From Salinispira sp. (GTDB taxonomy: Bacteria > Spirochaetota > Spirochaetia > DSM-27196 > Salinispiraceae): DNA of 64,000 nucleotides. The position numbers were made by a program, and so were the translations under genes. The DNA lies in contig OZ271918.1 of the NCBI GenBank assembly GCA_965602015.1, positions 3,424,001-3,488,000 on the forward strand, read 5' to 3'. Of the stretch, positions 15,754 to 34,153 are shown in pieces (the stretch's first letter is position 1; every line of letters begins with the position of its first letter). The notes under the pieces were generated by a model. It saw nothing but the letters and a program-made list of their open reading frames with translations. It was not told the origin of the DNA and did not search any database.

Positions 15754-15783
15754 GGCGAGTCCGACTCGAAGTGCTTGTTAAAT
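15754..15783 (-). repeat. Truncated attC (R''-L'' half only), cassette 15
   Basis: ggcgagtccgactcgaagtgcttgttaaat joined directly to IS256 coding sequence. Confidence 0.85.
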
Positions 15784-15787
15784 GCCT

Positions 15788-16636
15788 CTAAAATGCCGCG
15801 AATTCAGTCACAATATATATTTCCGAAATAGTATTTTCTTCGATCACAAAAGATAATGAATGTGTATCGATTATTATGTCAGACATAAAAATAATCCTAT
15901 TGTCTCTTTCGAAATATTCTTCTCCAATATTTGAGGAAATATCTGCAACGGTATCTCCGACGTTGATTTTATATTCAGAAGACACAAAGTTTGTGATGAT
16001 TATACTAGCAACTATAAAGCTATCATCGTTTTCATTATGGAGAATCCATAATCTGCCAAATGGAGTCCGGTACTCTTGTAAATTACTCTGTTGAAAATTT
16101 GGTATAGTCCTATCGGTATTTTGAAGTAATTGGTAATTATCTAGTCTCTCTTTTGAAATTCGAAAAGATAGATCGCCTGTCAATTCTGCTATTATCTGTC
16201 GCTGGAAGGCAATTTTTTCATAGTTCCACAATCCTACGCGTTGTATGAAGTGTTCTTCAAGCCAAAACTCCAATGGATAATCATCCCTGAAACTCACATA
16301 CTTGCCATACACCCATCCTGTAATAGAATCATCATCTAAAGTTTCGATTTGATACCAAGGGAAAGATTCACCATTTATTTCATATAGATCTGTTGTAATA
16401 GCTCGTATTTTTATAGGCGTATTTGAATTTAAGTGAGTCAAAATATTGCTCATTTGTAATACAGGCAAATCACGAACTCGCAATCGATCTGCATTTATGT
16501 AGGGAGAAGCATAAACATACTGTGATTCTGTAACTGTCTGATCATTCAGTTTGAAAGATTGTGCGAATAACGATGAACAGATAGAAATTGCAATTAGCAA
16601 TAGTATTATTTTTTTCATCTCAAACCCCGCAAACAT
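15788..16636 (-). CDS. Cassette 15: exported SH3-domain protein
   Basis: Signal peptide MKKIILL..LFA; LRVRDLP..WYQIE..GWVYGKYV. Confidence 0.75.
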   Translation of the reverse strand: MFAGFEMKKIILLLIAISICSSLFAQSFKLNDQTVTESQYVYASPYINADRLRVRDLPVLQMSNILTHLNSNTPIKIRAITTDLYEINGESFPWYQIETLDDDSITGWVYGKYVSFRDDYPLEFWLEEHFIQRVGLWNYEKIAFQRQIIAELTGDLSFRISKERLDNYQLLQNTDRTIPNFQQSNLQEYRTPFGRLWILHNENDDSFIVASIIITNFVSSEYKINVGDTVADISSNIGEEYFERDNRIIFMSDIIIDTHSLSFVIEENTISEIYIVTEFAAF

Positions 16637-16644
16637 CTAAGTGC

Positions 16645-16761
16645 ATTTAACAACCACTTAACCTGTGAGCCGTACGTTGGCATGGAGTTTGCCCTGCCCT
16701 TCAGGGCAGGACAAGCAAACTCCATGCCAATAGGCGAATCAGGCTGAAGTGCTTGTTATGT
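16645..16761 (-). repeat. attC site (cassette 14)
   Basis: 117-bp palindrome ATTTAAC...GTTATGT. Confidence 0.92.
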
Positions 16762-16824
16762 AGCTCCTTTTTCATCAGCGCAACCTGTACTACTGACTTT
16801 TTTTATTTCTGCTAATGGCAGCGC

Positions 16825-17379
16825 TTATAAGTTAGTCAAATAATTCTCATTTTGGTTCTTAATTAAGTAATTGAGTACACTAGTTTCCCTTATGATCCAA
16901 GGGAAGTTTCGATTTGCCCCCGGTTTCATTAGGGTTTTATTTTTCTGAAATGCATAGTTTGGTGATACCCATACAGGCACGATTTGGTACTCTTGTTCCA
17001 TCTTTGTCAGATTAACTTCATCGAATTTATCCATATATACTGTGCTCACATAGAAGTAAGAAATCATATGAAAATAATCATACTCCGGCAGAAACGATGT
17101 TCTAAATTCCTCGGTGATTAACGCTAAATCGCGAATTTCCTCTATCCTATATCCCGTCTCTTCATTTATTTCACGAATCAATGTCATTTCATTTGTTTCG
17201 CCTGATTCTTGGCCGCCACCAGGGAAACTGTATTCGCCAAATTTATTTGACTTGATTAAAAGCAATTTTGAATCAGATTTATCGAATATGATTCCACGGA
17301 TGCTTTTGTATGATGCTATTTTAATTTTCGAGTCATTCGGATCAGGGAAATCTACTTCCAAAAATGATAGTTTTTCCAC
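16825..17379 (-). CDS. Cassette 14: NUDIX hydrolase (copy of cassette 1)
   Basis: Nudix box GGQESGETNEMTLIREINEETGY. Confidence 0.9.
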   Translation of the reverse strand: MEKLSFLEVDFPDPNDSKIKIASYKSIRGIIFDKSDSKLLLIKSNKFGEYSFPGGGQESGETNEMTLIREINEETGYRIEEIRDLALITEEFRTSFLPEYDYFHMISYFYVSTVYMDKFDEVNLTKMEQEYQIVPVWVSPNYAFQKNKTLMKPGANRNFPWIIRETSVLNYLIKNQNENYLTNL

Positions 17380-17696
17380 TAAGTCTCCCTGAGTCTACAT
17401 AACAACGCCTTGAGCGGCACGCCGTCAATTGGCGTGGAGTTTGCCCCGCGCAGCGGGAAAAGCAAACTCCATGACAATAGGCGTGTCCGTCTCGAATGTA
17501 GCCTCTCAAATTAAATTGATCAAACCAGCATAGAAAATCTCACAAACAGTTAAACAATCTCTCATTCCACTTAGACCGGAAATTTTATCTGCCGACAAAA
17601 AAAGAGCAATGGTGTTGAAGTTTGCCGACTCCCCATTGCTCTTAAAACCTCACCCCCAAAGGGGGCAAATAAACGTTACTTATTTGTCGGATAGTT

Positions 17697-18194
17697 TTGG
17701 AAAAACTTCAAGCGCTTGGGAAACAGTTCCACTGGAAAAAACCTGAATGTTGTCCCGAGTGTGGAAGCATACGGCTATGGGGGCACGGCTTCGTTCTTCG
17801 GCAGTTTGTCGGGTTTGCCCAAGGACTGTGGATGAAGCGGTATCGATGTCCGGACTGCCATGGGGTTCATACCTGTAGGCCACAGCAGTTCTTGCCGGGG
17901 ATGCAATATCCTGTTCAAACTCAAATCTCCAGCCTGGAAGCAAAGCTTGCAGGAAAGCCGTTCCTTCAAACTGTGTCGAGGCAGATCCAGCAGCATTGGT
18001 GGAAGACATTTCTCAACCACTGCCGCCGTAGCGGCAACTGGACTGCCCCACATTCGGTTTTCCTCCGCAGGCAGAGCGATGATCAAATACCAGTAACAAC
18101 CAGGCGAATATACCGTGAGATCTGGTCAGAAGCCTGCGTACCCTACCTGCCTTTTGCGCTGACAGTGAAACCGCGTCCATTTAGCCTTGAGTGA
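17697..18194 (+). CDS. Zn-finger accessory protein of the element (DUF6431-like)
   Basis: CPEC..LWGHG..RYRCPDC; true start may be further upstream. Confidence 0.75.
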   Translation: MEKLQALGKQFHWKKPECCPECGSIRLWGHGFVLRQFVGFAQGLWMKRYRCPDCHGVHTCRPQQFLPGMQYPVQTQISSLEAKLAGKPFLQTVSRQIQQHWWKTFLNHCRRSGNWTAPHSVFLRRQSDDQIPVTTRRIYREIWSEACVPYLPFALTVKPRPFSLE

Positions 18195-18223
18195 GAAAAC
18201 GTATCACTCTCAAGGAGGAGAAA

Positions 18224-19507
18224 ATGGACAGAGAAAAGAAAGAAAAGATCGCAGTATTCCGCTTCGGGGTCATCTTTCCGCTTGTGGAGAAAGACCTACA
18301 CCAGTATTGGGGAGAGAAAGAGCGAATCCTGCGGGAGCTGGTCAGCAAGGAATGGGAGATTCCCTTTTCAAACCGAAACTACATCAGCAAGGCCACCATC
18401 CTGACCTGGGTAAAGCGCTACGAAGATGGCGGGCGGAAGATTGAAGCCTTGTTTCCTGAGAATCGCGGCGACAAGGGCCGGATGAGAAGCATTTCCGATG
18501 AACAAATCGATGCGCTCATGCTGCTTCGAAAAGAGCATCCAAAACTCTCCACCCCGCGTCTGGTTGAAATTGCTCAAGGAAACGGCGTCTTTCCGTCCGG
18601 AAAAGAGGTCTCCATGGCCAGCATTTACCGGCTCATGAAGATCCGCAAAGCCCAACGGGTCAAAGTCGAGTCTGACATGAGGAAGTTCGAGGTACAATTG
18701 CCCAACGACCTGTGGCAGTCAGACTGCATGCACGGTCCGAAAGTTCTGCATGGCGGGAAACTGAGAAAGACCTATCTGTTTGCAATCATTGACGACCATT
18801 CAAGGCTCATTACCCATGGCCAGTTCTACCTGGCTGAAACACTGGAAAATTACCTGGACTGCTTATGGACGGCGTTACGCAAGCGGGGAGTTCCCCGAAA
18901 GCTCTATGTCGATAACGGGGCATCATTTAAGGCGCACAGGCTCCAGTTGGGATGTGCTTCGCTGGAAATCGGGCTGCGCTATGCACGGCCGTACCGACCC
19001 CAGGGAAAGGGCAAGATTGAACGGTTCTTTCGTACCGTACGTAGCCAGTTTATCCCCGAGCTGCCTGATGAACTTCCTCTGGATGAGATCAACCGGCTGT
19101 TTCACCACTACATTGAAAACGGTTATCACCAGAGGATCCATGGCGGTACGGGGCAGAAGCCCCTGGAGCGTTACCTGCAGGATGCCCATGCCTTGCGAAA
19201 AGCGCCGGAGAACTTGCCTGAATACTTTCGAAAACGCGAGGAGCGAACGGTAAACAACGACCGGACGGTGAAACTCGATGGCCGTTTGTATGAAGCCCCT
19301 GCGGGATTGGTTGGCATGAAAGTCGTCCTGCGTTTTGAGAATTACGACCGGATTGAAGTCTTTCTCGAGAATCAGTCAAAGGGATTCTTAAGGGATCTGG
19401 ATCAGGGAGTGAACAGCCGCATTAAGCGGGACGGCACGGGTCCGGTCATGCCGTCGGCTTCGGGGGGAGCTCTTTTTGAAAAGCTGGGCTCAAAGGCAGG
19501 TAGCTAA
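18224..19507 (+). CDS. DDE transposase/integrase (rve core, Mu-like C-terminus)
   Basis: LWQSD, IIDDHSR, YVDNG, GKGKIERFFRT; AGGAG RBS before ATG 18224. Confidence 0.92.
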   Translation: MDREKKEKIAVFRFGVIFPLVEKDLHQYWGEKERILRELVSKEWEIPFSNRNYISKATILTWVKRYEDGGRKIEALFPENRGDKGRMRSISDEQIDALMLLRKEHPKLSTPRLVEIAQGNGVFPSGKEVSMASIYRLMKIRKAQRVKVESDMRKFEVQLPNDLWQSDCMHGPKVLHGGKLRKTYLFAIIDDHSRLITHGQFYLAETLENYLDCLWTALRKRGVPRKLYVDNGASFKAHRLQLGCASLEIGLRYARPYRPQGKGKIERFFRTVRSQFIPELPDELPLDEINRLFHHYIENGYHQRIHGGTGQKPLERYLQDAHALRKAPENLPEYFRKREERTVNNDRTVKLDGRLYEAPAGLVGMKVVLRFENYDRIEVFLENQSKGFLRDLDQGVNSRIKRDGTGPVMPSASGGALFEKLGSKAGS

Positions 19508-20313
19508 TGGATACGCTGCGCCACCACTTTGGATTCCGGCACAACCCGTTCCCGCAGAATGTAGCGGTAAAGGACCTGTACCCCTTACCGGCATTGGAAC
19601 CCCTGCGGCAGCGGGTGTTCTTTGCCCTGGAGCAGAAAGCCATTGCCGTCATCACCGGAGATGTGGGGTCGGGAAAGTCTACGTCATTGCGCTATGTCTC
19701 AAGCAAATGCCATTCGAGTGAGTATGAACTGATTACCATTGTCGGCGGGAACTTCTCACCCATGGAACTGTACCGGCAGATCCTGCTCACTTTCGGCATG
19801 AGCTATATGTCGTTCCAGGTATCGATCATGATCTCGAAGATCCGGGAGCTTATTCTGGAAATTGCATCCCGCAATGTCATCCCGGTGCTGGTAATCGATG
19901 AGGCTCATCTGCTGAAACGGTCAGTGTTTACCCAGCTGCATACCCTTGCTCAGTTTGAATTCGATTCCAAACCGGTCATGCCGATGATTCTCTGCGGTCA
20001 GGATTTCCTGCTCGATCATCTGATGGCTAACTCAGTTCGGCCTCTGGCGTCCCGGGTGCTGGGCAAGAATCATCTGGAGTCTATTAAGAAGGAGGTGATG
20101 GAAGATTACCTGAATCATCACATCACCCTGGCCGGGGGAACAAAGAAAGCATTCAGTGATGAGGCGATCTTTGCCATTCATCAGGGATCCGGTGGTCTCT
20201 TGCGGAAAGCCAACTCCCTGGCGAAAACGGCTCTCCTTGCCTGCGCCGGAGATGGTGGACAGACTGTTTCTGCAGAACACGTCCGGGTCGCTTCCACCGA
20301 GATTTTTATGTAA
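19507..20313 (+). CDS. ExeA-like AAA ATPase (transposition helper)
   Basis: HFGFRHNPF, GDVGSGKS, VIDEAH, ILCGQ. Confidence 0.9.
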   Translation: MDTLRHHFGFRHNPFPQNVAVKDLYPLPALEPLRQRVFFALEQKAIAVITGDVGSGKSTSLRYVSSKCHSSEYELITIVGGNFSPMELYRQILLTFGMSYMSFQVSIMISKIRELILEIASRNVIPVLVIDEAHLLKRSVFTQLHTLAQFEFDSKPVMPMILCGQDFLLDHLMANSVRPLASRVLGKNHLESIKKEVMEDYLNHHITLAGGTKKAFSDEAIFAIHQGSGGLLRKANSLAKTALLACAGDGGQTVSAEHVRVASTEIFM

Positions 20314-20433
20314 ATGCTGCCCCTGCCGCGAATGCGGCAGGGGGTACCCTTCGTCAGTTTTACTTGTAAAATTGTTTGTCTGTACGTGCGAGGGTTAGGC
20401 TAATTTAATGTGCGAAGCTACACGAAGCGCTTG

Positions 20434-21228
20434 TTATGCAGCGACCTCTTTCCTCATGGTACTGCTGTTGCCCTTTATCATGAATCGAGTCAACAAAAGC
20501 AAGATTCCAAGCAAAAAGATTGTGACTATCCATCGCATCATCGATGGAAAATCCAATGTATTTAAAAACAGGTCCCCAATATATCGAGAAGATAAATTTA
20601 CGATTCCATGAATTAGAATTGCGAAGTGAATTGAATAACCTTGAATAATAATCCAACCAAGAAAAAATCCTAATACAAGAGTAAATGAAATAAGGAGGAT
20701 GGTGCCATGAATAAGTGCAAAACAGATTGTGGATACAATAAGCGATGTATATTTATAATTTTCGGTAAACGGCAGGACATCCCGAAAGATTAGCTCTTCA
20801 ATAATTGGTGATAGGATCCCAATTGAGATCAGAGTGAATATTTTTCTTGTATTGTCTCCTGTGTCATACATTTGAATTATCTGGGATATTTCAATTTCAG
20901 CTTGTCCGGGAAAAAATATGTGTCCGATATTCCATGAAAATGAGATGAAGCTTATTCCCCAAAATAGCATAATCAATACCTGAAAGGGATCCATCTCCGG
21001 TTTTTGAAATACATTCGAAAATAATCTTTTGCTTGGGAGCAATAGCATAAGAATTAGAAAGATAAATTTTCCAATAGCTACCCGTTCGGGAAACTGTGAA
21101 GATGGATTGATGCTTATATTATATCCAGTATCATTTTGGGTAATTGTTGTGGATGCAAATACGAGAGTAAGAAAATATAAGAATACCAGGAGAAGCATGA
21201 ATAGTAAGGGTTTTCCTGGAAATTTCAT
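20434..21228 (-). CDS. Cassette 13: CPBP/CAAX intramembrane metalloprotease
   Basis: PIIEELIFR, FALIH, HGIVN motifs; stop codon inside R''. Confidence 0.88.
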   Translation of the reverse strand: MKFPGKPLLFMLLLVFLYFLTLVFASTTITQNDTGYNISINPSSQFPERVAIGKFIFLILMLLLPSKRLFSNVFQKPEMDPFQVLIMLFWGISFISFSWNIGHIFFPGQAEIEISQIIQMYDTGDNTRKIFTLISIGILSPIIEELIFRDVLPFTENYKYTSLIVSTICFALIHGTILLISFTLVLGFFLGWIIIQGYSIHFAILIHGIVNLSSRYIGDLFLNTLDFPSMMRWIVTIFLLGILLLLTRFMIKGNSSTMRKEVAA

Positions 21229-21261
21229 ACTCGGTGTATCCTATAAATCATTCTTGCGTCT

Positions 21262-21378
21262 GCATAACAACCACTTAACCTGTGAGCCGTACATTGGCAT
21301 GGAGTTTGCCCTGCCCTTCAGGGCAGGACAAGCAAACTCCATGCCAATAGGCGAATCAGGTTGAAGTGCTTGTTATGC
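21262..21378 (-). repeat. attC site (cassette 12)
   Basis: 117-bp palindrome GCATAAC...GTTATGC. Confidence 0.92.
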
Positions 21379-21807
21379 ACCCTCTAATATTTCGCTTTTT
21401 ATTTTTTCTATTGTCTGAAGCGCATTATTTATCAAAGGGAAAAGCAGTTCCTGATCGAGCATAAATCCATATGAATGACGAAAGAAATGTCGAAAACTCT
21501 GATAATCACGGACCGATTCATAGGTTTCTTTTGAAATGATTTTTCGATCTGTTATTAGCGTTAATAATTCTGAATGCCATTTTGGTCCATCAGGAATTTT
21601 AATTTCCTGATCTGTTAATATTAGTACGAAAATTTTTTCTATTCCGTTATAGATCGAATGTAGCGTGGTGGCCGCTGCTCTTACTTGAATTTCATCAATC
21701 CGATTTGCTGTGAAAAGTGGTATGAGAATTTTGGTAAGTTCGGCTTCCTTTAGGATTTGAGAAAATTCAAATTGGATATCATCTTTTGCTTCAGGCGACA
21801 CGTTCAA
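21373..21807 (-). CDS. Cassette 12: HEPN (HepT-like) RNase toxin
   Basis: HSIYNGIEKI; RHFFRH (RX4H) followed by SY. Confidence 0.85.
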   Translation of the reverse strand: MNVSPEAKDDIQFEFSQILKEAELTKILIPLFTANRIDEIQVRAAATTLHSIYNGIEKIFVLILTDQEIKIPDGPKWHSELLTLITDRKIISKETYESVRDYQSFRHFFRHSYGFMLDQELLFPLINNALQTIEKIKSEILEGA

Positions 21808-22081
21808 GTTTTTTTCTATCTCTTAATCTTCGACTAAAATCATGATCATAATCCAAGCCGATTAAGTCTACACTTCGGCTTAGTTTTTCAATGAGCTCCC
21901 CGTATGCCGTAAAAAATTTGCTTTTAGGGAGGCCGACGACCGCGATATCGATATCCGAATTATCCGTGAAATTTCCTTCAATTAAGGATCCAAAGATATA
22001 GATTTCACGGCATCCAAACTTCAGAAGAATTTCTTTTGCGAGATCTATATCTTCTTTGGTCTTTGTATCTGCCTTAATCAT
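21791..22081 (-). CDS. Cassette 12: MNT nucleotidyltransferase antitoxin
   Basis: FGS-X10-DID motif. Confidence 0.88.
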   Translation of the reverse strand: MIKADTKTKEDIDLAKEILLKFGCREIYIFGSLIEGNFTDNSDIDIAVVGLPKSKFFTAYGELIEKLSRSVDLIGLDYDHDFSRRLRDRKKLERVA

Positions 22082-22162
22082 TAATCCAATTCTATTTTAT
22101 AGATTTGAAAAACACAAGAATTCGGTAAGACTGCTTGTTAATCTAAAATATTAAAAAAGTGT

Positions 22163-22260
22163 GCATAACAACCACTTAACCTGTGAGCCGTACATTGGCG
22201 CGTGTTTTTGCGAATGCAAAAACCGTGACAATAGGCGAATCAGGTTGAAGCTTGTTATGT
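22163..22260 (-). repeat. attC site (cassette 11), short, with 2-bp spacer deletion
   Basis: 98 bp; ttgaag-ctt-gtta instead of ttgaag-tgctt-gtta. Confidence 0.85.
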
Positions 22261-22262
22261 GG

Positions 22263-22496
22263 TCATTTATCATGCTGTTCAGGTTCTGTATTGGGAACCT
22301 TTTTCAATATCTCTTTGTATTTGTCAGTGCTGCCCGACTTTGCTCGTTCGCTAAGATAATTTTCCGTTTCTAGTGCAGTGATTTTTTCAGCAACTGCAGC
22401 AGCGATAAACTGATTTATCGAGACATGATCTTCTTTCGAGAACCGCTTCACTGATGCGTGAAGAGAGTCTGGGATTCTTATACTCAACGTACTCAT
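22263..22496 (-). CDS. Cassette 11: RHH/HicB-like antitoxin
   Basis: MSTLSIRIPDSLH..SINQFIAAAVAEK. Confidence 0.8.
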   Translation of the reverse strand: MSTLSIRIPDSLHASVKRFSKEDHVSINQFIAAAVAEKITALETENYLSERAKSGSTDKYKEILKKVPNTEPEQHDK

Positions 22497-22921
22497 TTGT
22501 CCTCCTCAAGGATTTGCAGGAATTCATATGGCGTAATTGCTGAAATACCAAATGTGCTGGCTCGTTCAAAGTCTTTCACATTGTACGTAATTATCCATTT
22601 TGCATTTGCGGCTACCGCAACCTCAAGTAAATGATCATCATAAGGATCTTTGAGAATTGGTCGCCATAGATAATATACTTTGATATGTCTCCCAATCTTG
22701 CATAGGTAATCAATAATTGCCTGTATGTCCTGGTCTGAATAAATTTTCTTATCTAGTTTCTTTTTCAGTATTGCCTCGTATTCAAGAATGACCGGAACAG
22801 AAATTGAAATATTGAATTTCTCTTCCGCTAAAAGCTGGAGAATCTGAAAGGACTTTCCGTTTCGGCTACCTAAACCAGATAATAGGACATTGGTATCGAG
22901 AATTGCTTCTTGCTTCTCCAT
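22493..22921 (-). CDS. Cassette 11: PIN-domain toxin
   Basis: ILDTNVL, EY, DPYDD, ITYNVKDF. Confidence 0.88.
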   Translation of the reverse strand: MEKQEAILDTNVLLSGLGSRNGKSFQILQLLAEEKFNISISVPVILEYEAILKKKLDKKIYSDQDIQAIIDYLCKIGRHIKVYYLWRPILKDPYDDHLLEVAVAANAKWIITYNVKDFERASTFGISAITPYEFLQILEEDK

Positions 22922-22924
22922 AAA

Positions 22925-22955
22925 GGTATTATATATGATACCGAAATACTTTCAA
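22925..22955 (-). promoter_or_regulatory. PIN-TA promoter with palindromic operator
   Basis: TTGAAA-16-TATAAT-6nt-ATG; GGTATCATATATAATACC inverted repeat over the -10. Confidence 0.7.
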
Positions 22956-22966
22956 GTGTAGAGTAA

Positions 22967-23206
22967 TTACCAAATATAAAACATTGCATATGTCAGAGGA
23001 ACTACTACTATGGGGGACAGAAAGACTATTACAAGTGAAGGAAATTTCTGTTCTTTTCTTTTTTGATTAGAATATTGATTCAGAATTTTGATCCAATGCT
23101 GTCCATCCAATTCAATATTATTATCGATTAAGTATTTCTCCATAAGTGCCGCGCCTATGGCCTGGGGAACAATTATTAATAAGAATAGAATGAATATAGG
23201 AAGCAT
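22967..23206 (-). CDS. Cassette 11: small membrane protein
   Basis: 79 aa, two hydrophobic segments, AGGAG RBS. Confidence 0.6.
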   Translation of the reverse strand: MLPIFILFLLIIVPQAIGAALMEKYLIDNNIELDGQHWIKILNQYSNQKRKEQKFPSLVIVFLSPIVVVPLTYAMFYIW

Positions 23207-23241
23207 TCAGGCTCCTAGTCCTCGTTTGTAAATCTTGATCC

Positions 23242-23355
23242 ACATAACAACCACTTGAGCGGCGAGCCGTCAATTGGCGTGGAGTTTGCCCGCCGTCAGG
23301 CGGATCAGCAAACTCCATGACAATAGGCGAGTCCGTCTCGAAGTGCTTGTTAAAT
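23242..23355 (-). repeat. attC site (cassette 10)
   Basis: ACATAAC...GTTAAAT palindrome. Confidence 0.92.
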
Positions 23356-23369
23356 GTCCTATATGTATA

Positions 23370-24389
23370 TTAAACCGCCAGTTTAAAATCTGAGAGACCG
23401 TGACTCTCCAAGACCTCATTATATTTTTCGATGAAATCCGATTTTCCTTCAAGGATTAAAAAGATCTCTTCGAGTCCAAATCGAGCTAAAAGCATTCCGA
23501 AAAGTTCTGTTCCGAATAAGTAGTTTGGATATTGAGACAATTGCTTCTCGGATGAATCGATTCGTCCTGATGTGAACCATTTCTTATAGATTTTCCCCAT
23601 ATCAATATTTGGATTATTTGAAACCTCGGCGAAGTCATCACAAAATTGGCTGAAGTAATATGTATAGTGAGCACGGAAATAATCCCAATCATCAACCTCA
23701 ATCACATAATTCTTTCTAGCGGGTTCGATGATTGGTGAGAATAATGTCTCAGGATGGTTGAAGGATTTAATAGCTAATCCTTCGAATGCGAAGAAGAATA
23801 AAAATTCCTGCCAATTATCGAGATCTGAAAAGTTCGCAAAATATTTTTGGAACCCTATATGGTGTAATTCATGTGCGATGAGATTTTCTAACTGCTGGAT
23901 AGATTCATATTGTGTGAGTGCTTCAATAAAATCAAAGTGGATTACGTTTTTATATGGCCATCCAAAACTATTCCCGATTCCCACAGTGATGAGTATATCG
24001 AAATCTGGAAGTTGAATATTCTTAGGTAGTTTTTCAGCTGCTTTTACTTTCGCAGCTGTGATCACGCTCTCCCACCCTTTGGTAAATCCTTTCCATTTCG
24101 ATTTGATAACCTCAATATTGTTTAGCAGTTGCACAATCCGTTTTATATGCGGATGAGAATCATTATTCACTGGAGTAGGTTTCTGTCCTGAGAAGCCAGA
24201 AATTGTCTCAATTATTTCAGGAGTTGGAAAGGAAAACTCTGAATCCCTGGAAGTATATCGTTCGATTTCCAAAAGATAATCTTCGTGTTGATATAGTTTT
24301 GAGATATCATTTTTCGGCACAACGCCGTTTAAAATTTGATCGGTGAGATTGAATAAGACGGGTATTGTAGCTGAACGTAAAGTTCCCAT
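23370..24389 (-). CDS. Cassette 10: putative Zn-dependent protease
   Basis: IAHELHHIG (HExxH) with downstream EGLA. Confidence 0.7.
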   Translation of the reverse strand: MGTLRSATIPVLFNLTDQILNGVVPKNDISKLYQHEDYLLEIERYTSRDSEFSFPTPEIIETISGFSGQKPTPVNNDSHPHIKRIVQLLNNIEVIKSKWKGFTKGWESVITAAKVKAAEKLPKNIQLPDFDILITVGIGNSFGWPYKNVIHFDFIEALTQYESIQQLENLIAHELHHIGFQKYFANFSDLDNWQEFLFFFAFEGLAIKSFNHPETLFSPIIEPARKNYVIEVDDWDYFRAHYTYYFSQFCDDFAEVSNNPNIDMGKIYKKWFTSGRIDSSEKQLSQYPNYLFGTELFGMLLARFGLEEIFLILEGKSDFIEKYNEVLESHGLSDFKLAV

Positions 24390-24406
24390 TAATTCACCTT
24401 AGGTAC

Positions 24407-24523
24407 ATTTAACACTCGCTTGAGCTGCGAGCCGAAATTGGCGTGGAGTTTGCCCTGCCCTCCTGGGCAGGAATAGCAAACTCCATGACAATAGGCGAGT
24501 CAGACTCAAAGCGTTTGTTATGA
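24407..24523 (-). repeat. attC site (cassette 9)
   Basis: ATTTAAC...GTTATGA palindrome. Confidence 0.9.
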
Positions 24524-25204: not shown

Positions 25205-25287
25205 GTTGCCCCCACATCTTATTAGAGATTACAAACATAATATCATAATTATCATTAATTGAAACTAAGAAAATATTTTTTGCGTCG

Positions 25288-25408
25288 TCATAACAACCAC
25301 TTGAGCGGCGAGCCGTCAATTGGCGTGGAGTTTGCCCTGCCCGATTAGGGCAGGAATTAAGCAAACTCCATGACAATAGGCGAGTCCGTCTCGAAGTGCT
25401 TGTTATAT
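25288..25408 (-). repeat. attC site (cassette 8)
   Basis: TCATAAC...GTTATAT palindrome. Confidence 0.9.
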
Positions 25409-25436
25409 TTCAACTCCAATCAACAGTTTTGTTCCT

Positions 25437-26195
25437 TTAATTTTTATTCGCTTGATAAGTCTCCATCGAAATTTTGATAACATCCATAATTATTTTCAAT
25501 TCATCTGTACTAGCTAGCTCAGCCCCGAATTTCCATTCATTTGATAATATGGATTGCTCTGCCAGCAATTCTCCATCTTGGAAATAGTAATTCGCATTCC
25601 ATCGAATTTCATTCTCCAGTGAAAATGGATTCAATCCCCAATGGATATTCGATATCAAAATAATTTCATCTTCATCGAAATATGTGGTGTATGTGAATCC
25701 CGAACCATCACCGATAACTCGAATAATAAATTTGACCAGTGAATCATTCGTATTCGTATATGCACTGATTCGATATCCAACAGGGTACCCAGGACCATCC
25801 TCGTGCAGGATTTCAAAATTAAAATCAAAATCGCTTCGATCCATATCGATCTTATCAAGATGATCAATTTGAGTGGTGATATCATTAATTAGAAAAATAT
25901 TTGGGTTAAAAAGGAGCTGCCAAACATCAGCGGTTACAACACCATCATCAATTAGTGAGAATCTATTCTGAAAAATTGTGATTGCAATTTCTGAGTTCGG
26001 ACCAAACCATCCATCTACAGTACCCACTTCTGCATATCCTAAATCTAATAACCGTTGCTGAACTTGCGTTACATCAGGACCATTCATCCGGGGACTTGCC
26101 AAGTAAATGTCTCGGTAAAATTCCTGATTCTGAGCTGATAGCGAGGATATCGATAAAAGAAAAAATAAGGTAAATAATGATTTTCGGTTTTTCAT
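25437..26195 (-). CDS. Cassette 8: exported peptidoglycan-binding-domain protein
   Basis: Signal peptide from ATG 26195; GPDVTQVQQRL..VDGWFGPNS..FQ..DGVV (PG_binding_1). Confidence 0.8.
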   Translation of the reverse strand: MKNRKSLFTLFFLLSISSLSAQNQEFYRDIYLASPRMNGPDVTQVQQRLLDLGYAEVGTVDGWFGPNSEIAITIFQNRFSLIDDGVVTADVWQLLFNPNIFLINDITTQIDHLDKIDMDRSDFDFNFEILHEDGPGYPVGYRISAYTNTNDSLVKFIIRVIGDGSGFTYTTYFDEDEIILISNIHWGLNPFSLENEIRWNANYYFQDGELLAEQSILSNEWKFGAELASTDELKIIMDVIKISMETYQANKN

Positions 26196-26214
26196 GCAAT
26201 TTCCCCGGTTGTAA

Positions 26215-26369
26215 ATATAACAACCACTTGAGCCGCGAGCCGTAATTGGCGCGTGTTCTTGCGCCGTACCTCCCTGCAGGCTTCTTCTTTTGATTGTACC
26301 CGTAGTTCCCCTCACCGCTCAAGCAAGAACCGTGACAATAGGCGAGTCGGCTCAAAGTGCTTGTTATAT
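26215..26369 (-). repeat. attC site (cassette 7), long variant
   Basis: 155 bp; conserved arms with a long pyrimidine-rich central loop. Confidence 0.88.
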
Positions 26370-26903
26370 TGCGCACATCTTTAGGCAATCTTTTTGGTTT
26401 TTGGCTTTCAGGATATAGCAGTTTTTCGATATGATCGCAGTCAGTGAATACAAGCAGATAGGTTTAGTATCCCACGAGCCAAATACCAAAGCGCGGATGA
26501 ATTTGCCGGATGCGGCAATCTGCTATGCTTTGATTTCGGTTTTTCATATCATTTCAATTTGCGCAGGGTACAAAATAGCACCTGGCTTTCAAATCGATGT
26601 TCGATCTGAATCAGAAAAAATAGATCACTGGCAAGAGATGCGAGGACAATGACCGAAAATCACTGATTACTTTGTAATAAAGCCACGCGGCAATTTCGAG
26701 CCTTTCAGAGACCATAGATTGGTGCACTATTTGCCGATCGGATCACACAGTTCAGTGCGCCAAAAATGACTTGAGCTGTGAACCTCGGCAGAATACGAAT
26801 CAGGCGTTATAGCCGTTGACTCAGCAGTCACAGAATTCCAGAACCAAAATAAATGAAGCGGCTAAATTCGACTGCAACTTCGGTTTATGCATTTCCTGAG
26901 TCC
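26370..26903 (-). other. Cassette 7: no substantial ORF
   Basis: ~530 bp between two attC sites; only a 23-codon ORF at the sense start and a 73-codon antisense ORF. Confidence 0.75.
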
Positions 26904-27014
26904 ATATAACAACCGCTTGAGCGGCACGCCGTCAATTGGCGTGAAAAATGCCGAGCGCAGCGACAAGCATTTTTCATGACAATAGGCGTGTCCGTCTCAA
27001 AGCGCTTGTTATGT
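26904..27014 (-). repeat. attC site (cassette 6)
   Basis: ATATAAC...GTTATGT palindrome. Confidence 0.9.
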
Positions 27015-27023
27015 CGCCCCTTT

Positions 27024-27320
27024 TTATCTCATACATATTATTTTGTTGAGAAATTTTCCTTCAATATTACCTTTCAATTTCAGATAATAGGATAACCAAA
27101 GAATAATCACCAATAAAACAAAAATAAACTGAGGAATCCCCTGAAGATATCGAAATATATTATCCAGTTGCTCGATTTGGAAATTAAGATCTCCATCTTG
27201 CCTTACCTCAAATCTTCCGACATACCATCCTCGAAGAAAATCATGCGAAAATGAAATTAAGAGGTGCAATATGTATGCAATTCCTCCAGAGAAAAGTACA
27301 ATTCTTCCAGCATTATTCAT
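27024..27320 (-). CDS. Cassette 6: small membrane protein
   Basis: AAGGAG RBS; two TM-like segments. Confidence 0.6.
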   Translation of the reverse strand: MNNAGRIVLFSGGIAYILHLLISFSHDFLRGWYVGRFEVRQDGDLNFQIEQLDNIFRYLQGIPQFIFVLLVIILWLSYYLKLKGNIEGKFLNKIICMR

Positions 27321-27389
27321 TTCATAAATCTCCTTTCTTCAACCTGCATTATCGAAATTTATTTCTCGCAATAATTTAAGTTGTCTGGT

Positions 27390-28025
27390 TTAAAATCCTA
27401 TTTCATTTTCTAGGTGATGTAAGATCATTTCGATTTGATACATTAAATATTGCTCAGGATGATCCAATGCTATCTCAATATAGTTTTCATCAAAGTTTTC
27501 CCTAGTTAAAATTACCTCGCTCATCATTGAATTTGTTCTAATATCCAATAAATCATTTTTCAGCTTTAGCAATTTATTTTTGTCATACCTGATGAGATAT
27601 TGAACTGCAAACTTATTTGCGTCTAACTCCATTTCATATGGTGATAATTCCCATATATCATTCTGCACTTGAATGTAATGACCAAATTCATGAGCAATAA
27701 AAAACCAATTAAAGAGATCATGAAATATCTCGGGATCGGTTAGATTTGTTGAAATAAATTGCTTCTGCTCAGTGTTCAGTTCATTATATTTGGGTACCAC
27801 AATAGTATTACTTGCTCTGTCATAGAATATTAGGAGATCTGTCGTTCGAAATTCTATTTTTGGAATGTCGCTGTACCCAATTTCGGATAAATCTTCGTTC
27901 AGTGAATTATATAGCCTTTTTGACTCGCTTAAATATGTGCATGACGTGATTGAAATGATAATGATCAATAATCCCATGATAATTTTTATCCATTTCATTA
28001 AAAAAATCATATCAGTTTGGTCCAA
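27390..28025 (-). CDS. Cassette 6: putative lipoprotein metallopeptidase
   Basis: SITSC lipobox-like; IAHEFGH..ELDAN. Confidence 0.65.
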   Translation of the reverse strand: MDQTDMIFLMKWIKIIMGLLIIIISITSCTYLSESKRLYNSLNEDLSEIGYSDIPKIEFRTTDLLIFYDRASNTIVVPKYNELNTEQKQFISTNLTDPEIFHDLFNWFFIAHEFGHYIQVQNDIWELSPYEMELDANKFAVQYLIRYDKNKLLKLKNDLLDIRTNSMMSEVILTRENFDENYIEIALDHPEQYLMYQIEMILHHLENEIGF

Positions 28026-28042
28026 TACTTAATCTTTTGTCG

Positions 28043-28159
28043 ACATAACAACCACTTAACCTGTGAGCCGTACATTGGCATGGAGTTTGCCCTGCCCTTC
28101 AGGGCAGGACAAGCAAACTCCATGCCAATAGGCGAATCAGGTTGAAGTGCTTGTTATGC
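28043..28159 (-). repeat. attC site (cassette 5)
   Basis: Same as 21262-21378 apart from the R' extension. Confidence 0.92.
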
Positions 28160-28588
28160 ACCCTCTAATATTTCGCTTTTTATTTTTTCTATTGTCTGAA
28201 GCGCATTATTTATCAAAGGGAAAAGCAGTTCCTGATCGAGCATAAATCCATATGAATGACGAAAGAAATGTCGAAAACTCTGATAATCACGGACCGATTC
28301 ATAGGTTTCTTTTGAAATGATTTTTCGATCTGTTATTAGCGTTAATAATTCTGAATGCCATTTTGGTCCATCAGGAATTTTAATTTCCTGATCTGTTAAT
28401 ATTAGTACGAAAATTTTTTCTATTCCGTTATAGATCGAATGTAGCGTGGTGGCCGCTGCTCTTACTTGAATTTCATCAATCCGATTTGCTGTGAAAAGTG
28501 GTATGAGAATTTTGGTAAGTTCGGCTTCCTTTAGGATTTGAGAAAATTCAAATTGGATATCATCTTTTGCTTCAGGCGACACGTTCAA
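28154..28588 (-). CDS. Cassette 5: HEPN toxin (copy of cassette 12)
   Basis: Identical protein to 21373-21807. Confidence 0.85.
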   Translation of the reverse strand: MNVSPEAKDDIQFEFSQILKEAELTKILIPLFTANRIDEIQVRAAATTLHSIYNGIEKIFVLILTDQEIKIPDGPKWHSELLTLITDRKIISKETYESVRDYQSFRHFFRHSYGFMLDQELLFPLINNALQTIEKIKSEILEGA

Positions 28589-28862
28589 GTTTTTTTCTAT
28601 CTCTTAATCTTCGACTAAAATCATGATCATAATCCAAGCCGATTAAGTCTACACTTCGGCTTAGTTTTTCAATGAGCTCCCCGTATGCCGTAAAAAATTT
28701 GCTTTTAGGGAGGCCGACGACCGCGATATCGATATCCGAATTATCCGTGAAATTTCCTTCAATTAAGGATCCAAAGATATAGATTTCACGGCATCCAAAC
28801 TTCAGAAGAATTTCTTTTGCGAGATCTATATCTTCTTTGGTCTTTGTATCTGCCTTAATCAT
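28572..28862 (-). CDS. Cassette 5: MNT antitoxin (copy of cassette 12)
   Basis: Identical protein to 21791-22081. Confidence 0.88.
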   Translation of the reverse strand: MIKADTKTKEDIDLAKEILLKFGCREIYIFGSLIEGNFTDNSDIDIAVVGLPKSKFFTAYGELIEKLSRSVDLIGLDYDHDFSRRLRDRKKLERVA

Positions 28863-28943
28863 TAATCCAATTCTATTTTATAGATTTGAAAAACACAAGA
28901 ATTCGGTAAGACTGCTTGTTAATCTAAAATATTAAAAAAGTGT

Positions 28944-29056
28944 GCATAACAACCGCTTGAGCGGCGAGCCGTAATTGGCGTGGAGTTTGCCCGCCGCCAG
29001 GCGGATCAGCAAACTCCATGACAATAGGCGAGTCCGTCTCGAAGCGCTTGTTATGT
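28944..29056 (-). repeat. attC site (cassette 4)
   Basis: GCATAAC...GTTATGT palindrome. Confidence 0.92.
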
Positions 29057-29066
29057 AGCCCACTAT

Positions 29067-29348
29067 TTATAGACTATTCGATTCATTTTCTCTTTTTTCA
29101 TTTTTTCTTTTTATAATTTTATAAATCAGAAATACCGAAATGAAACCCATAAAAAGGGTATATATAAATCCAATTGACACAAATACACTTGCCCATAATT
29201 CAGTTTCTAATTTTGTAGAATCAGCCGTATTAAAAATAAAAAACATAATTCCAGCAAACGAGAAGAAACCTATAATCAACCCGGGGATGAATTTTAACAT
29301 CAAAATTTGAATTTTCTTTCCAATTTTTTTAAAGCTCAATATTGGCAT
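29067..29348 (-). CDS. Cassette 4: small membrane protein
   Basis: 93 aa, two TM-like segments; overlaps HD gene stop. Confidence 0.6.
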   Translation of the reverse strand: MPILSFKKIGKKIQILMLKFIPGLIIGFFSFAGIMFFIFNTADSTKLETELWASVFVSIGFIYTLFMGFISVFLIYKIIKRKNEKRENESNSL

Positions 29349-29937
29349 TTGTCGTTCTCTCTGTTTTTTCTGAATATAAAAAATCTAAATTAGTCTTAGT
29401 TTTCTGCTTAAAATAAGAAAGCAGTTCGTATTTCTTTTCTAAATTTTGTATGAATTGCTTAGATGGAGATTTTACTCTGGATAAAACATCCTCGATTCGA
29501 TCTTCGATTTTACAGAGTCGGTCTGGAAGTCCCAAGAAATCACAGAGCTGAATTAACTTATCATAATCATTATAATTATATTTCTGAAGTAGCGTTTCTA
29601 CCGTTGATAATTCCGATTCAGTGTAATCATTATAATCTTGGTATATGGAAATGTCTTTTAGCGTATAGCAATGAGTTATACATATTCTTGCATGGTTATT
29701 ATGACCTTGCGCCAACATGAAATAATATCCGTCAATTGCATGCCTTATTTTATATATTCCTTTCCGTCTTCCAATATCGTGGAGTAATCCATAGGTATAG
29801 GCTAAATCAGAATCTAAATTTGCGGCAGATGCAATTTTTTCAGCTGCTATTGCAACATTATACGAGTGACCAACCCATTTCCCAGGATTCAATTTTCCCG
29901 CTTCTGTTATATAAGCTTCTGCTCTGCTTCTATTCAT
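29329..29937 (-). CDS. Cassette 4: HD-domain phosphohydrolase
   Basis: HSYNVA..GLLHDIGR..H..LCD. Confidence 0.85.
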   Translation of the reverse strand: MNRSRAEAYITEAGKLNPGKWVGHSYNVAIAAEKIASAANLDSDLAYTYGLLHDIGRRKGIYKIRHAIDGYYFMLAQGHNNHARICITHCYTLKDISIYQDYNDYTESELSTVETLLQKYNYNDYDKLIQLCDFLGLPDRLCKIEDRIEDVLSRVKSPSKQFIQNLEKKYELLSYFKQKTKTNLDFLYSEKTERTTNANIEL

Positions 29938-29954
29938 ATTTTCTTCCGGGGTCT

Positions 29955-30071
29955 ACATAACAACCACTTAACCTGTGAGCCGTACATTGGCGTGGAGTTT
30001 GCCCTGCCCTTCAGGGCAGGAACAGCAAAATCCATGACAATAGGCGAATCAGGTTGAAGTGCTTGTTAAAT
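29955..30071 (-). repeat. attC site (cassette 3)
   Basis: ACATAAC...GTTAAAT palindrome. Confidence 0.92.
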
Positions 30072-30078
30072 GCCCATT

Positions 30079-30507
30079 TCATTTCCCAATTATATTTTCA
30101 ATCTCTTCAAGAAATTGATTTGTTAAGGATGGAATCTTCTTAATAATCGATTCGATCGAATCTTTTTTGAGTTCAAACGCATATGCATGCCTGACAAAAT
30201 GATGGAAGCTGAGAAAAGATTTAAGTTCGTCAAAGATCTTATCAGATATGATCTGATTGTCTTTAGATGATTTCAATAAGTTCAGATGCCAAGAATCGTC
30301 TTTGGCAATCAGAATCTGTTTGGATTCCAATACAAATCGAAGAATTTTCTCTATTCCGTTATAGATTGCAGTTGTTGTAAGAGCCAATCCGCGAATTTCA
30401 ATTTCATCTAGTTCTTTATTTTCTATTTTCTTTGCATACAACTCGATAAATGACTTTTCTTCATCGATATTCTGAATTTCAATCTGTATTTTTTGGATAG
30501 GATCCAT
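30079..30507 (-). CDS. Cassette 3: HEPN (HepT-like) toxin, variant motif
   Basis: IYNGIEKI; HHFVRH in place of RX4H. Confidence 0.82.
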   Translation of the reverse strand: MDPIQKIQIEIQNIDEEKSFIELYAKKIENKELDEIEIRGLALTTTAIYNGIEKILRFVLESKQILIAKDDSWHLNLLKSSKDNQIISDKIFDELKSFLSFHHFVRHAYAFELKKDSIESIIKKIPSLTNQFLEEIENIIGK

Positions 30508-30804
30508 CTATGCCACCCGGAGAATTTCATCGGATTGTAGCAATATTCTGCCGAATTTTTCCTGAAGTTGCAGATCGACAAGATCGATTTGATGTTCGAG
30601 CAAGAACATCAATTCTCCATAAACTTCAAAAAATTTTTCAGCGGGTATTCCCTTCACGGCTATATCGAGATCTGATTTTTCGTTTGCTTTTCCAGTTACG
30701 GCAGATCCAAAAATATAAATTTCTGAGCAACCGATGTCTTTTAAATAGGAAATTGCTTTTTCAACATCAGTTGCATATCTGGAATCCAATTTTAATTCGG
30801 TCAT
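30508..30804 (-). CDS. Cassette 3: MNT antitoxin
   Basis: FGSAVTGKANEKSDLD. Confidence 0.88.
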   Translation of the reverse strand: MTELKLDSRYATDVEKAISYLKDIGCSEIYIFGSAVTGKANEKSDLDIAVKGIPAEKFFEVYGELMFLLEHQIDLVDLQLQEKFGRILLQSDEILRVA

Positions 30805-30902
30805 ATAATGATATTATATATTGTAGAGATTCAGTACTCAACGAGTTTTTCTGTTACTCATTCCAGGAACATGAAAAAGACGGTTATTTTCTTTTTTGGT
30901 GC

Positions 30903-31015
30903 ATTTAACAACCACTTGAGCGGCACACCGTCAATTGGCATGCGTTTTTGCCCGAGCGTAGCGAGAAGCAAAAACCATGACAATAGGTGTGTCCGTCTCG
31001 AAGTGCTTGTTATGT
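30903..31015 (-). repeat. attC site (cassette 2)
   Basis: ATTTAAC...GTTATGT palindrome. Confidence 0.92.
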
Positions 31016-31030
31016 GGCGGTATCAATCGG

Positions 31031-31330
31031 TTAGTCATTCGCCAAATACCTTGGGAAGCCATGCCAACCAGTACTCATTATAAAAGTTTTATCGTTTATG
31101 CTGATTCTATATTCTACTTGGAGCTGTTTTGAAAGTGGACCAGTATTTTCATAAAAGAGCTTTCTCACCTTTGCATTCATTCCATAAATCAAAGAAAGAT
31201 CATTTGCGATATGTCCATCAGAAACCAATTGGAGAAATATTTTTCTTTTGAGTCGTGAATTAAAATAAAGGACGAATATAAACAGAACTATGAAAAATGT
31301 GACTACTTGAAAAATCATATCATTATTCAT
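31031..31330 (-). CDS. Cassette 2: small protein with N-terminal TM segment
   Basis: 99 aa ORF with AAGGG RBS. Confidence 0.55.
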   Translation of the reverse strand: MNNDMIFQVVTFFIVLFIFVLYFNSRLKRKIFLQLVSDGHIANDLSLIYGMNAKVRKLFYENTGPLSKQLQVEYRISINDKTFIMSTGWHGFPRYLAND

Positions 31331-31377
31331 GTCATTCCCTTGTTATAAATTTACAGCATTCAATTATAAAACTAAGT

Positions 31378-31944
31378 CTATTTTGTTTCTATAAGTGAAT
31401 ATATATAGTAATTATAAAATTTTCCCTCGATCATAAAGTGATCCCGCAACTCTGCGTCTCGTAAAAACCCTGCGGATTCTAGAATTTTCTGAGATGGTAT
31501 ATTCAGTTCACTTGTCCACGCTGTAAGTTTGCGTATAGGAAGACTGTCATTAAATAACAAACGTACAAACTCGGATAATCCAAAACTACCGAAACCTTTT
31601 GCTCTATTGATTTCGGGAAAAAAATAACCAATTTCTATATTTTGATTTCGAGCGTTATAATCAAATGCTTCAAACTTACCCAAACATTCAGAGGGGTTGG
31701 ATGTATCGATAAGGCTTTTTAAGAATACATTAGGAATAGATTTTTGCTTATTTTTCTTCAACAACCACTGTTCATACTCTGGGATTTCCTTAACTAGTCT
31801 ACAGGAATAGTTTTCACGATTTGGCTCTTTAAGCATCCATTCATGCATTTGTAATAAATGCCCTTCTGTGGGTTCAATTAATTTCAAGTACATATTGACA
31901 TTCCCAAAACCATCGTTTCTGCTTAAATCAAAGTTTACGTCCAC
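31378..31944 (-). CDS. Cassette 2: GNAT (RimJ/RimL-like) acetyltransferase
   Basis: EIGY..RAKGFG..NIPSQKILESAGF; start may be the later ATG (MYLKL). Confidence 0.85.
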   Translation of the reverse strand: MDVNFDLSRNDGFGNVNMYLKLIEPTEGHLLQMHEWMLKEPNRENYSCRLVKEIPEYEQWLLKKNKQKSIPNVFLKSLIDTSNPSECLGKFEAFDYNARNQNIEIGYFFPEINRAKGFGSFGLSEFVRLLFNDSLPIRKLTAWTSELNIPSQKILESAGFLRDAELRDHFMIEGKFYNYYIYSLIETK

Positions 31945-32059
31945 ATAACAACCACTTAACCTGTGAGCCGTACGTTGGCATGGAGTTTGCCCTGCCCTTC
32001 AGGGCAGGACAAGCAAACTCCATGCCAATAGGCGAATCAGGCTGAAGTGCTTGTTATGT
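31943..32059 (-). repeat. attC site (cassette 1)
   Basis: Same as 16645-16761 apart from the R' extension. Confidence 0.92.
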
Positions 32060-32122
32060 AGCTCCTTTTTCATCAGCGCAACCTGTACTACTGACTTTTT
32101 TTATTTCTGCTAATGGCAGCGC

Positions 32123-32677
32123 TTATAAGTTAGTCAAATAATTCTCATTTTGGTTCTTAATTAAGTAATTGAGTACACTAGTTTCCCTTATGATCCAAGG
32201 GAAGTTTCGATTTGCCCCCGGTTTCATTAGGGTTTTATTTTTCTGAAATGCATAGTTTGGTGATACCCATACAGGCACGATTTGGTACTCTTGTTCCATC
32301 TTTGTCAGATTAACTTCATCGAATTTATCCATATATACTGTGCTCACATAGAAGTAAGAAATCATATGAAAATAATCATACTCCGGCAGAAACGATGTTC
32401 TAAATTCCTCGGTGATTAACGCTAAATCGCGAATTTCCTCTATCCTATATCCCGTCTCTTCATTTATTTCACGAATCAATGTCATTTCATTTGTTTCGCC
32501 TGATTCTTGGCCGCCACCAGGGAAACTGTATTCGCCAAATTTATTTGACTTGATTAAAAGCAATTTTGAATCAGATTTATCGAATATGATTCCACGGATG
32601 CTTTTGTATGATGCTATTTTAATTTTCGAGTCATTCGGATCAGGGAAATCTACTTCCAAAAATGATAGTTTTTCCAC
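32123..32677 (-). CDS. Cassette 1: NUDIX hydrolase
   Basis: Identical protein to 16825-17379. Confidence 0.9.
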   Translation of the reverse strand: MEKLSFLEVDFPDPNDSKIKIASYKSIRGIIFDKSDSKLLLIKSNKFGEYSFPGGGQESGETNEMTLIREINEETGYRIEEIRDLALITEEFRTSFLPEYDYFHMISYFYVSTVYMDKFDEVNLTKMEQEYQIVPVWVSPNYAFQKNKTLMKPGANRNFPWIIRETSVLNYLIKNQNENYLTNL

Positions 32678-32694
32678 TAAGTCTCCCTGAGTCT

Positions 32695-32745
32695 ACATAA
32701 CAACCCACTTAAGCTTAAAACCATTGTTATTAGAATTGTATCATA
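32695..32745 (-). promoter_or_regulatory. Candidate attI site and Pc promoter
   Basis: First GTTATGT core (G at 32701) has no long attC hairpin; extended -10 TGATACAAT at 32743-32735. Confidence 0.55.
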
Positions 32746-32902
32746 ACTCTGAAAGCTGAGAAAATGTAGATAAGTCTTGGCAGATATTTGGTTTTCTACT
32801 TAAGTGCATCATAGAGATCGACAGAAAAAAAACTCACCGACCGGAAGGGATTTATATTGACCAGCAGTCTTCTTTTCAACACGTGAAGTTTACGCCTCCG
32901 GC

Positions 32903-34144: not shown

Positions 34145-34153
34145 AATTTCCCC

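Follow-up and report, generated by a model that had tools for sequence, protein, structure and literature searches.

The 64,000-nucleotide stretch of a Salinispira sp. genome analysed here (contig OZ271918.1 of assembly GCA_965602015.1, positions 3,424,001 to 3,488,000; hereafter the window) carries on its minus strand an array of 15 integron cassettes (window 15754-32700) that has an attI recombination site and a predicted cassette promoter (Pc) at its head and no integrase gene beside it. The comparisons reported below indicate that this array is probably an integrase-free attI and Pc platform that is served in trans by the single integron integrase (IntI) of the genome, encoded 1.71 Mb away, and that probably goes back to a loss of intI long ago. 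An earlier reading of the window made from its letters only (the sequence-only reading) had offered either such a split platform or a very recent loss of intI; the former is preferred here, given an intact IntI at a distance, a homologous leader and shared cassettes that are 99.8-100% identical, and the latter appears less likely.

According to the mechanism that we propose, the distant IntI would excise cassettes as circles from either of the two arrays and insert them at either attI. Excision could leave the donor copy in place and would then give rise to exact duplicates within and between the arrays, and the predicted local Pc would express the newest cassette. The platform may have begun as a second integron that lost its intI in the distant past, or as a copy of the leader alone, the leader being retained by selection.

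The attI and predicted Pc leader of the array

The 109 bp at the head of the array (Table 1) are homologous to the attI leader linked to intI (genome positions 1742570-1742678; E 6e-31), with 92/109 positions identical, no gaps, the same crossover and complete identity of the last 11 nt. A profile of both leaders found only these two copies in the genome. The description of the leading site as a core site that is not an attC, given in the sequence-only reading, is borne out by this homology and by folding, in which the site did not form a hairpin (z -1.3, 23/200 shuffles); homology, position and the lack of a hairpin together identify an attI at the head of the array. The promoter consensus predicted as Pc is identical in the intI leader and has an equal position there. 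No intI adjoins the attI of the window: faint leader homology continues over 23 further nt (4/300 shuffles were equal) and stops ~15 nt short of where the intI start codon would be, and no coding remnant of intI was found at the locus by tblastn or blastn. The stop codon of the upstream permease (32903) lies ~200 bp from the first crossover (32701), as had been reported before.

As a side observation, the first bases of the spacer after the permease stop show a 22-nt likeness to a hairpin near genome position 3619140, which is not found in the 3' flank of intI. A degenerate half attC (genome positions 3619306-3619388) lies ~150 bp from this permease-spacer-like hairpin and near a copy of the 2.9-kb element listed in Table 1.

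The distant integrase and its array

The genome was available as one contig of 3.87 Mb (99.67% complete). Its sole match above the TIGR02249 cut-off of 265 is located at 1,743,026 (380 bits, profile positions 2-315, no stops) in a 418-aa frame with the catalytic motifs, i.e., a full-length intact integrase. The sequence-only reading had held that the array would be an ordinary orphan if relatives had intI at the junction with a clean deletion here and the genome had neither an IntI nor circles; one intact IntI is present. Its statement that the window encodes no tyrosine recombinase is correct, as none of the five PF00589 matches of the genome falls inside the window. The distance from intI to the window crossover is 1,714,131 bases, and the array linked to intI comprises 18 attC of the same family as the window attC.

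Cassettes of the window and their attC sites

The G|TT crossovers of the 15 cassettes are situated at window positions 32701, 31949, 30909, 29961, 28950, 28049, 26910, 26221, 25294, 24413, 23248, 22169, 21268, 17403 and 16651, and the GC content of the array is 0.37 vs 0.54 for the genome. Of the attC, 13 are intact, another is interrupted by a 2.9-kb insertion sequence (IS) and the last is truncated at 15754 by half an IS256. Folding of the bottom strands of all intact sites except the 155-nt attC (12 of 13) resulted in z values of -5.0 to -10.4 with 0/200 shuffles equally stable for each site. The first seven bases of the cassette are complementary to the inverse core of its own attC in 15/15 cases (25,225,200 orderings are possible given these core compositions), and this is the pattern that remains once a circle has been inserted at G|TT. 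Bounded by attC with folded bottom strands and complementary cores, the units are thus integron cassettes, and the crossovers, folds and cores uphold the earlier count of 15 minus-strand cassettes with related attC.

The cargo is ordinary and includes NUDIX, GNAT, HD, CAAX-protease-like, SH3 and peptidoglycan-binding proteins, together with toxin-antitoxin-type pairs in four cassettes and a cassette that lacks open reading frames (ORFs). Comparison of the latter with Rfam gave no match, and PADLOC returned partial-domain matches only, none of which was accepted as a defence system.

Table 1. Features of the array and its surroundings, in window positions.
Feature	Positions	Strand	Description
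MacB/FtsX-type ABC permease	32903..34144	-	upstream host gene (Pfam)
Spacer where intI would begin	32810..32902	.	93 bp
Orphan attI and Pc leader	32701..32809	-	crossover G|TT at 32701/32700; homologous to leader of only intI
Predicted Pc	32735..32762	-	-35 at 32762-32757, 16-nt spacer, extended -10 at 32740-32735
C1	31949..32700	-	NUDIX hydrolase, first position (Pfam); matches both C14 and cassette 6 of intI array at 752/752 nt
C2	30909..31948	-	GNAT acetyltransferase and 99-aa ORF (Pfam)
C3	29961..30908	-	nucleotidyltransferase and HepT-like pair, toxin-antitoxin type (Pfam); 946/948 to cassette 10 of intI array
C4	28950..29960	-	HD-domain protein and 93-aa ORF (Pfam)
C5	28049..28949	-	second nucleotidyltransferase and HepT-like pair; 901/901 identical to C12
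C6	26910..28048	-	two ORFs without Pfam match; 1137/1139 to cassette 7 of intI array
C7	26221..26909	-	no sense-strand ORF of at least 70 aa; 155-nt attC; 688/689 to cassette 8 of intI array
C8	25294..26220	-	peptidoglycan-binding-domain protein (Pfam)
C9	24413..25293	-	228-aa protein, no Pfam match; shares 76.7% identity with a cassette of intI array (older relation)
C10	23248..24412	-	DUF5700 putative peptidase (Pfam)
C11	22169..23247	-	79-aa ORF, PIN-domain toxin, HicB-like partner
C12	21268..22168	-	duplicate of C5
C13	17403..21267	-	CAAX-protease-like; attC interrupted by IS; 100% identity with cassette 2 of intI array over first 845 nt
2.9-kb TG...CA element	17497..20422	+	DUF6431, DDE transposase, AAA ATPase; 4-bp target duplication
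C14	16651..17402	-	duplicate of C1
C15	15754..16650	-	SH3-domain protein; attC cut after ~30 nt
3' half of IS256 with IS21 (13198-15403) inserted	12887..15755	-	truncates array tail

Cassette traffic between the two arrays

Near-identical copies (99.8-100%) of six of the 15 window cassettes (C1, C14, C3, C6, C7 and C13) are present in the intI array. C13 is identical to cassette 2 of that array save for the IS, past which its tail likewise matches. The exact duplications inside the window that the sequence-only reading had noticed were recovered (C1 and C14, 752/752; C5 and C12, 901/901). The three NUDIX copies (C1, C14 and cassette 6 of the intI array) share flanks of 4-5 nt upstream and 3-6 nt downstream of the crossovers, the flanks shared by C5 and C12 are 5 and 5 nt long, and C3 shares 9 nt upstream with cassette 10 of the intI array.

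The upstream flank of C1 is attI, so that homologous recombination from attC to attC cannot place this cassette. Since insertion or excision of a first cassette requires attI, an integrase would have acted at the window attI after the three C1 copies were last one. The leaders are 84% identical and the cassettes 100%, which dates the traffic as apparently later than the divergence of the leaders. Copy-and-paste insertion at the first position is a documented outcome of integrase activity (PMC8024014), and the locus adds what we read as direct sequence evidence of recent traffic, the first position included.

The array was compared over window 22300-34200 with separately assembled contigs from four runs of one sample (probably the source). 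Contig depth is not equal to copy number; word depth in the two best runs was ~30 for unique cassettes and the permease, 55-72 for two-copy cassettes and 80-85 for the three-copy C1. Loose contig ends at 32704-32705 match the two other contexts of C1, which has three upstream contexts. The contig on the permease side passes the crossover by only ~25 nt, where 31 are needed to call a bridge. Contig joints were also considered as excised circles and were not accepted as such, since they link similar attC.

Relatives and the origin of the orphan leader

The permease junction, which the sequence-only reading had proposed to compare among relatives, was inspected in two genomes of the same genus, G001 and G002, and in both the permease orthologue lacks an integron leader: in G002 (55%) it is followed by a chemoreceptor-like gene, and in G001 (71%) no leader was matched up to the contig end ~60 bp past the stop. 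The intI of G002 has other neighbours, so the location of the integron is not conserved in the genus. The window leader was matched in 0/4 and 0/7 relatives, the attI pattern had 0 matches among metagenome contigs, and a search with the permease gave no confirmed locus. The nearest relatives of the IntI in genome contigs are 40-61% identical.

Five single-contig genomes of this order with an IntI were each searched with their own leader, and a second copy was found in three, namely the present genome, G014 and G054; this is not an unbiased rate, because G054 had been chosen for its attC-linked elements far from intI. One strict attI pattern missed known sites and another missed that of G054 itself, and the attC counts of G014 and G054 are lower bounds owing to the insensitivity of generic attC finders. 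In G014, a 19-kb array of low GC content, 429 kb from intI, is headed by a 28-bp attI core (93%), with no IntI match in 48 kb. The G014 attI motif occurs at eight distinct sites in 6/99 genomes, seven of which adjoin intI, whereas the orphan one does not. The orphan leader of G054 (120/126 identical, 95%) is 1.37 Mb from the only IntI and adjoins a decayed 5' stub of intI (43/71, start codon gone, 1/300 shuffles); a weaker third head is found at 3,733,395. Set against the window, where no remnant was found, this stub suggests that the loss of intI was old and that the leader was kept by selection or conversion.

The draft genome G028 has two attI and intI loci, one of them frameshifted, possibly an earlier stage of intI loss. 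In G005, also a draft, one leader copy was found, and G015 contains a TIGR02249 copy broken by stops. Partial TIGR02249 matches in G014, G024, G016 and G005 were set aside, as no attC of the same family was nearby. Two further observations concern these relatives. A Drt3a/Drt3b pair of antiviral reverse transcriptases is encoded in the orphan array of G014 (1170484-1173955), both members above the NCBIfam cut-off, and on contig G058:C93 an attI beside intI is followed within ~90 bp by an ORF that resembles an IS91-type transposase (read by eye).

Alternative explanations

Several results weigh against a platform served in trans. The predicted Pc taken alone is a weak consensus match (9/12; 2 sites vs 0.7 expected). 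The part of the leader at 70-109 nt from the crossover, a possible site of the intI promoter, is conserved at 35/40 positions, equal to Pc, and this conservation fits a recent intI loss too. The identity of C6 with cassette 7 and of C13 with cassette 2 of the intI array extends 25 and 31 nt, respectively, into a like upstream attC, which makes these borders uninformative, and C6 and C7 appear to have moved as a pair with borders that are uninformative as well. Gene conversion could preserve the identity of old copies and so mask their age. No genome of the same species was found, so that the loss of intI is not datable; no second leader was present in G002 and G057; and in the stretches of G014 and G054 that were compared no near-identical cassettes common to the orphan and main arrays were detected.

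Among the alternatives, it is unlikely that a second complete integron lost its intI very recently, after cassette exchange, and that the array has since been frozen or has acted as a donor only. Genomes with two intI and intI pseudogenes are common (PMC2426708), the two loci of G028 provide an instance in this group, and the possible intI promoter block is conserved. Such a deletion, however, must postdate the C1 duplication (0/752 differences) and must have removed the whole ORF without a coding remnant or an IS scar, with a break within ~15 nt upstream of the start codon; moreover, the remaining IntI should still see an attI that is 84% identical to its own and identical over the last 11 nt.

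That the array is inert and owes its identical cassettes to the attC repeats, between which homologous recombination or gene conversion took place, is highly improbable. The attC are long and up to 100% alike, and the identity of C6 and C13 does enter the upstream attC, but C1 lies behind attI with 4-5 shared upstream nt, and the upstream flanks are equally short for C5/C12 (5 nt) and short for C3 and its counterpart (9 nt). Neither the leaders nor the cassette pairs at 76.7% and 94% have been homogenised, and the 15/15 complementary cores are such as circular intermediates give.

Exogenous IntIs can handle the cassettes of clusters of attC (PMC9668308), from which it might be argued that an orphan site was served by transient integrases on mobile DNA, or that the locus came from a sibling strain in one piece, already loaded. 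We assign this a very slight probability, as the shared cassettes are those of the resident array, the leader matches that of the resident IntI and the genome has no other IntI.

Lastly, the duplications or the junction might be assembly artefacts, given the repeat-rich array, runs that are only probably from the source sample and a permease contig short of a bridge (~25 vs 31 nt), but the stepped depth, the loose ends that match the C1 contexts and the 1-2 base differences between some shared copies make this negligible; the duplications, which the sequence-only reading had considered as potential artefacts, are supported by separately assembled contigs that are probably from the same sample.

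Comparison with known systems

The array is by definition a CALIN (cluster of attC sites lacking an integron integrase; Cury et al., 2016, PMC4889954), with at least two attC and no intI within 4-10 kb, but it is neither a headless decaying one nor a complete integron, and it would function in the manner of an integron platform. It shares with described CALINs the presence of an IntI elsewhere in the genome, as for half of the CALINs in PMC4889954, and the IS damage. CALINs split off by an IS are headless and have an IS or a breakpoint where attI would be, whereas the head of the window array has its own leader and no IS. The available text of PMC4889954 describes such split-off CALINs as lying beyond the range of Pc and as potential donors to the attI of the integron, and mentions as a scenario that one of several integrons loses its integrase; CALINs are regarded as degraded integrons by Neron et al. 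(2022, PMC9024848), according to whom attI is undetected outside class 1 in the text available. Unlike the CALINs described there, the window array keeps its own attI and a predicted Pc and appears to accept cassettes, and with 15 attC it belongs to a size range (>10) reached by only 6.6% of CALINs.

A sedentary chromosomal integron (intI-attI-Pc-array) is resembled in the attI and predicted Pc leader, the homogeneous long attC, the toxin-antitoxin and ORF-less cassettes, the low GC content and the duplications; it differs in that the window array has no intI in cis and would have the bottom strands of its attC on the lagging template, where 25/30 sedentary integrons have theirs on the leading one (PMC5371416). 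Cassettes far from intI and an integrase that acts at a distance are also features of attG sites and SALINs (bioRxiv 10.1101/2022.09.11.507474), but neither the sequence nor the structure of attG sites is that of attI, while the window head is a 109-bp homologue of a true attI leader.

In class 2 integrons, unlike in the window, the intI2 gene is still present, and the arrays rarely vary. Class 2 integrons can be served in trans by another integrase. They resemble the window array in having an intact attI and Pc and no working integrase, owing to a stop codon in the defective intI2 (PMC8876359; PMC2426708). Conserved CALINs of Xanthomonas likewise occupy fixed loci away from a single intI and are said to be mobilisable in trans, but neither attI or Pc heads nor traffic with the main array are reported in the available text (bioRxiv 10.1101/2025.06.18.660453). 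Mobilisation in trans is thus already stated to be possible (PMC9668308; bioRxiv 10.1101/2025.06.18.660453). In the literature searched, no description was found of an integrase-free head with attI and Pc that accepts cassettes, with the limits that the supplements of PMC4889954 and PMC9024848 may list cases and that subscription papers were largely uncovered.

Insertion sequences and other features of the arrays

The tail of the array is decaying under IS insertions, a feature absent from the sequence-only reading, and the head is intact; all ISs are found at the tail and none at the head. The best NCBIfam match of the 2.9-kb element is IS481, under the cut-off. It has six copies in the genome, and a targeting of attC was rejected, as only 1/6 copies is inside an attC. 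At genome positions 3858040-3863837 a copy of this element carries an IS21 and abuts pieces of IS256, the same three families that damage the window array. Just past the end of the IS256 (window 12785-12892) lies an orphan C-terminal gene fragment with 52% identity over 31 aa to a gene at genome position 2123997; we take it to resemble the end of FliG, without a Pfam match. This fragment suggests that the deletion which cut the array also took most of a host gene.

Cassettes with low or no coding content occur in both arrays (window 26221-26909; genome positions 1742076-1742569, the first of the intI array, with a 94% copy further down). Another cassette of the intI array (genome positions 1725933-1727826) encodes Vsr together with a restriction endonuclease of the NgoFVII type and a fragment of a C5 methylase. 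Behind an IS256 ~9 kb from dnaA (genome positions 3339522-3340400) there is a lone cassette-like unit, which has one attC of the family found in the window and holds an antitoxin/PIN-like gene pair (read by eye). ORFs of 517-526 aa in the intI arrays were considered as intron reverse transcriptases and rejected, being DDE transposases. A 1776-bp DDE element (DUF772 and DDE_Tnp_1_6), which we take to be IS1182, is inserted exactly at the attC crossover (genome positions 1717456-1719231 and 1729085-1733790), with GTT on both sides in 2/2 copies of this genome. The right ends are then followed by GTTA in 4/4 copies read in G002 and 5/5 in G054; three left ends of the G002 copies are inside an attC, and a fifth fragment is without a visible end. 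No paper on this habit of inserting at the crossover was among the literature matches listed.

Replication orientation and significance

Turning points of the cumulative GC skew were found at 3.32 and 1.415 Mb, and dnaA is located at 3,330,724. Both arrays are on the minus strand in different replichores and hence have opposite orientations to replication, which would place the bottom strands of the window attC on the lagging template and those of the intI array on the leading template. The former orientation favours excision and the latter is usual for sedentary integrons (PMC5371416). The opposite orientation is that of one genome and may be due to chance.

A tentative extension, which may hold but which we consider doubtful, is a distributed integron in which one integrase would serve two selected attI and Pc platforms, each with a role of its own, namely a stable reservoir next to intI (leading template, terminus half) and a high-turnover, origin-proximal expression platform in the window (lagging template, ~110-125 kb from dnaA); such an arrangement would be recurrent and maintained in the order, and many CALINs would be working acceptors.

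If a platform served in trans is the correct interpretation, one enzyme would give the cell two first positions, and CALIN counts, which are on a par with those of complete integrons (2961 vs 2760; PMC9024848), would hide working platforms. Outside the clinical classes, attI goes unrecognised by standard software. The genome makes the question testable, as a single IntI is present together with two natural variants of attI, a marker cassette in three identical copies and arrays of opposite orientation to replication.

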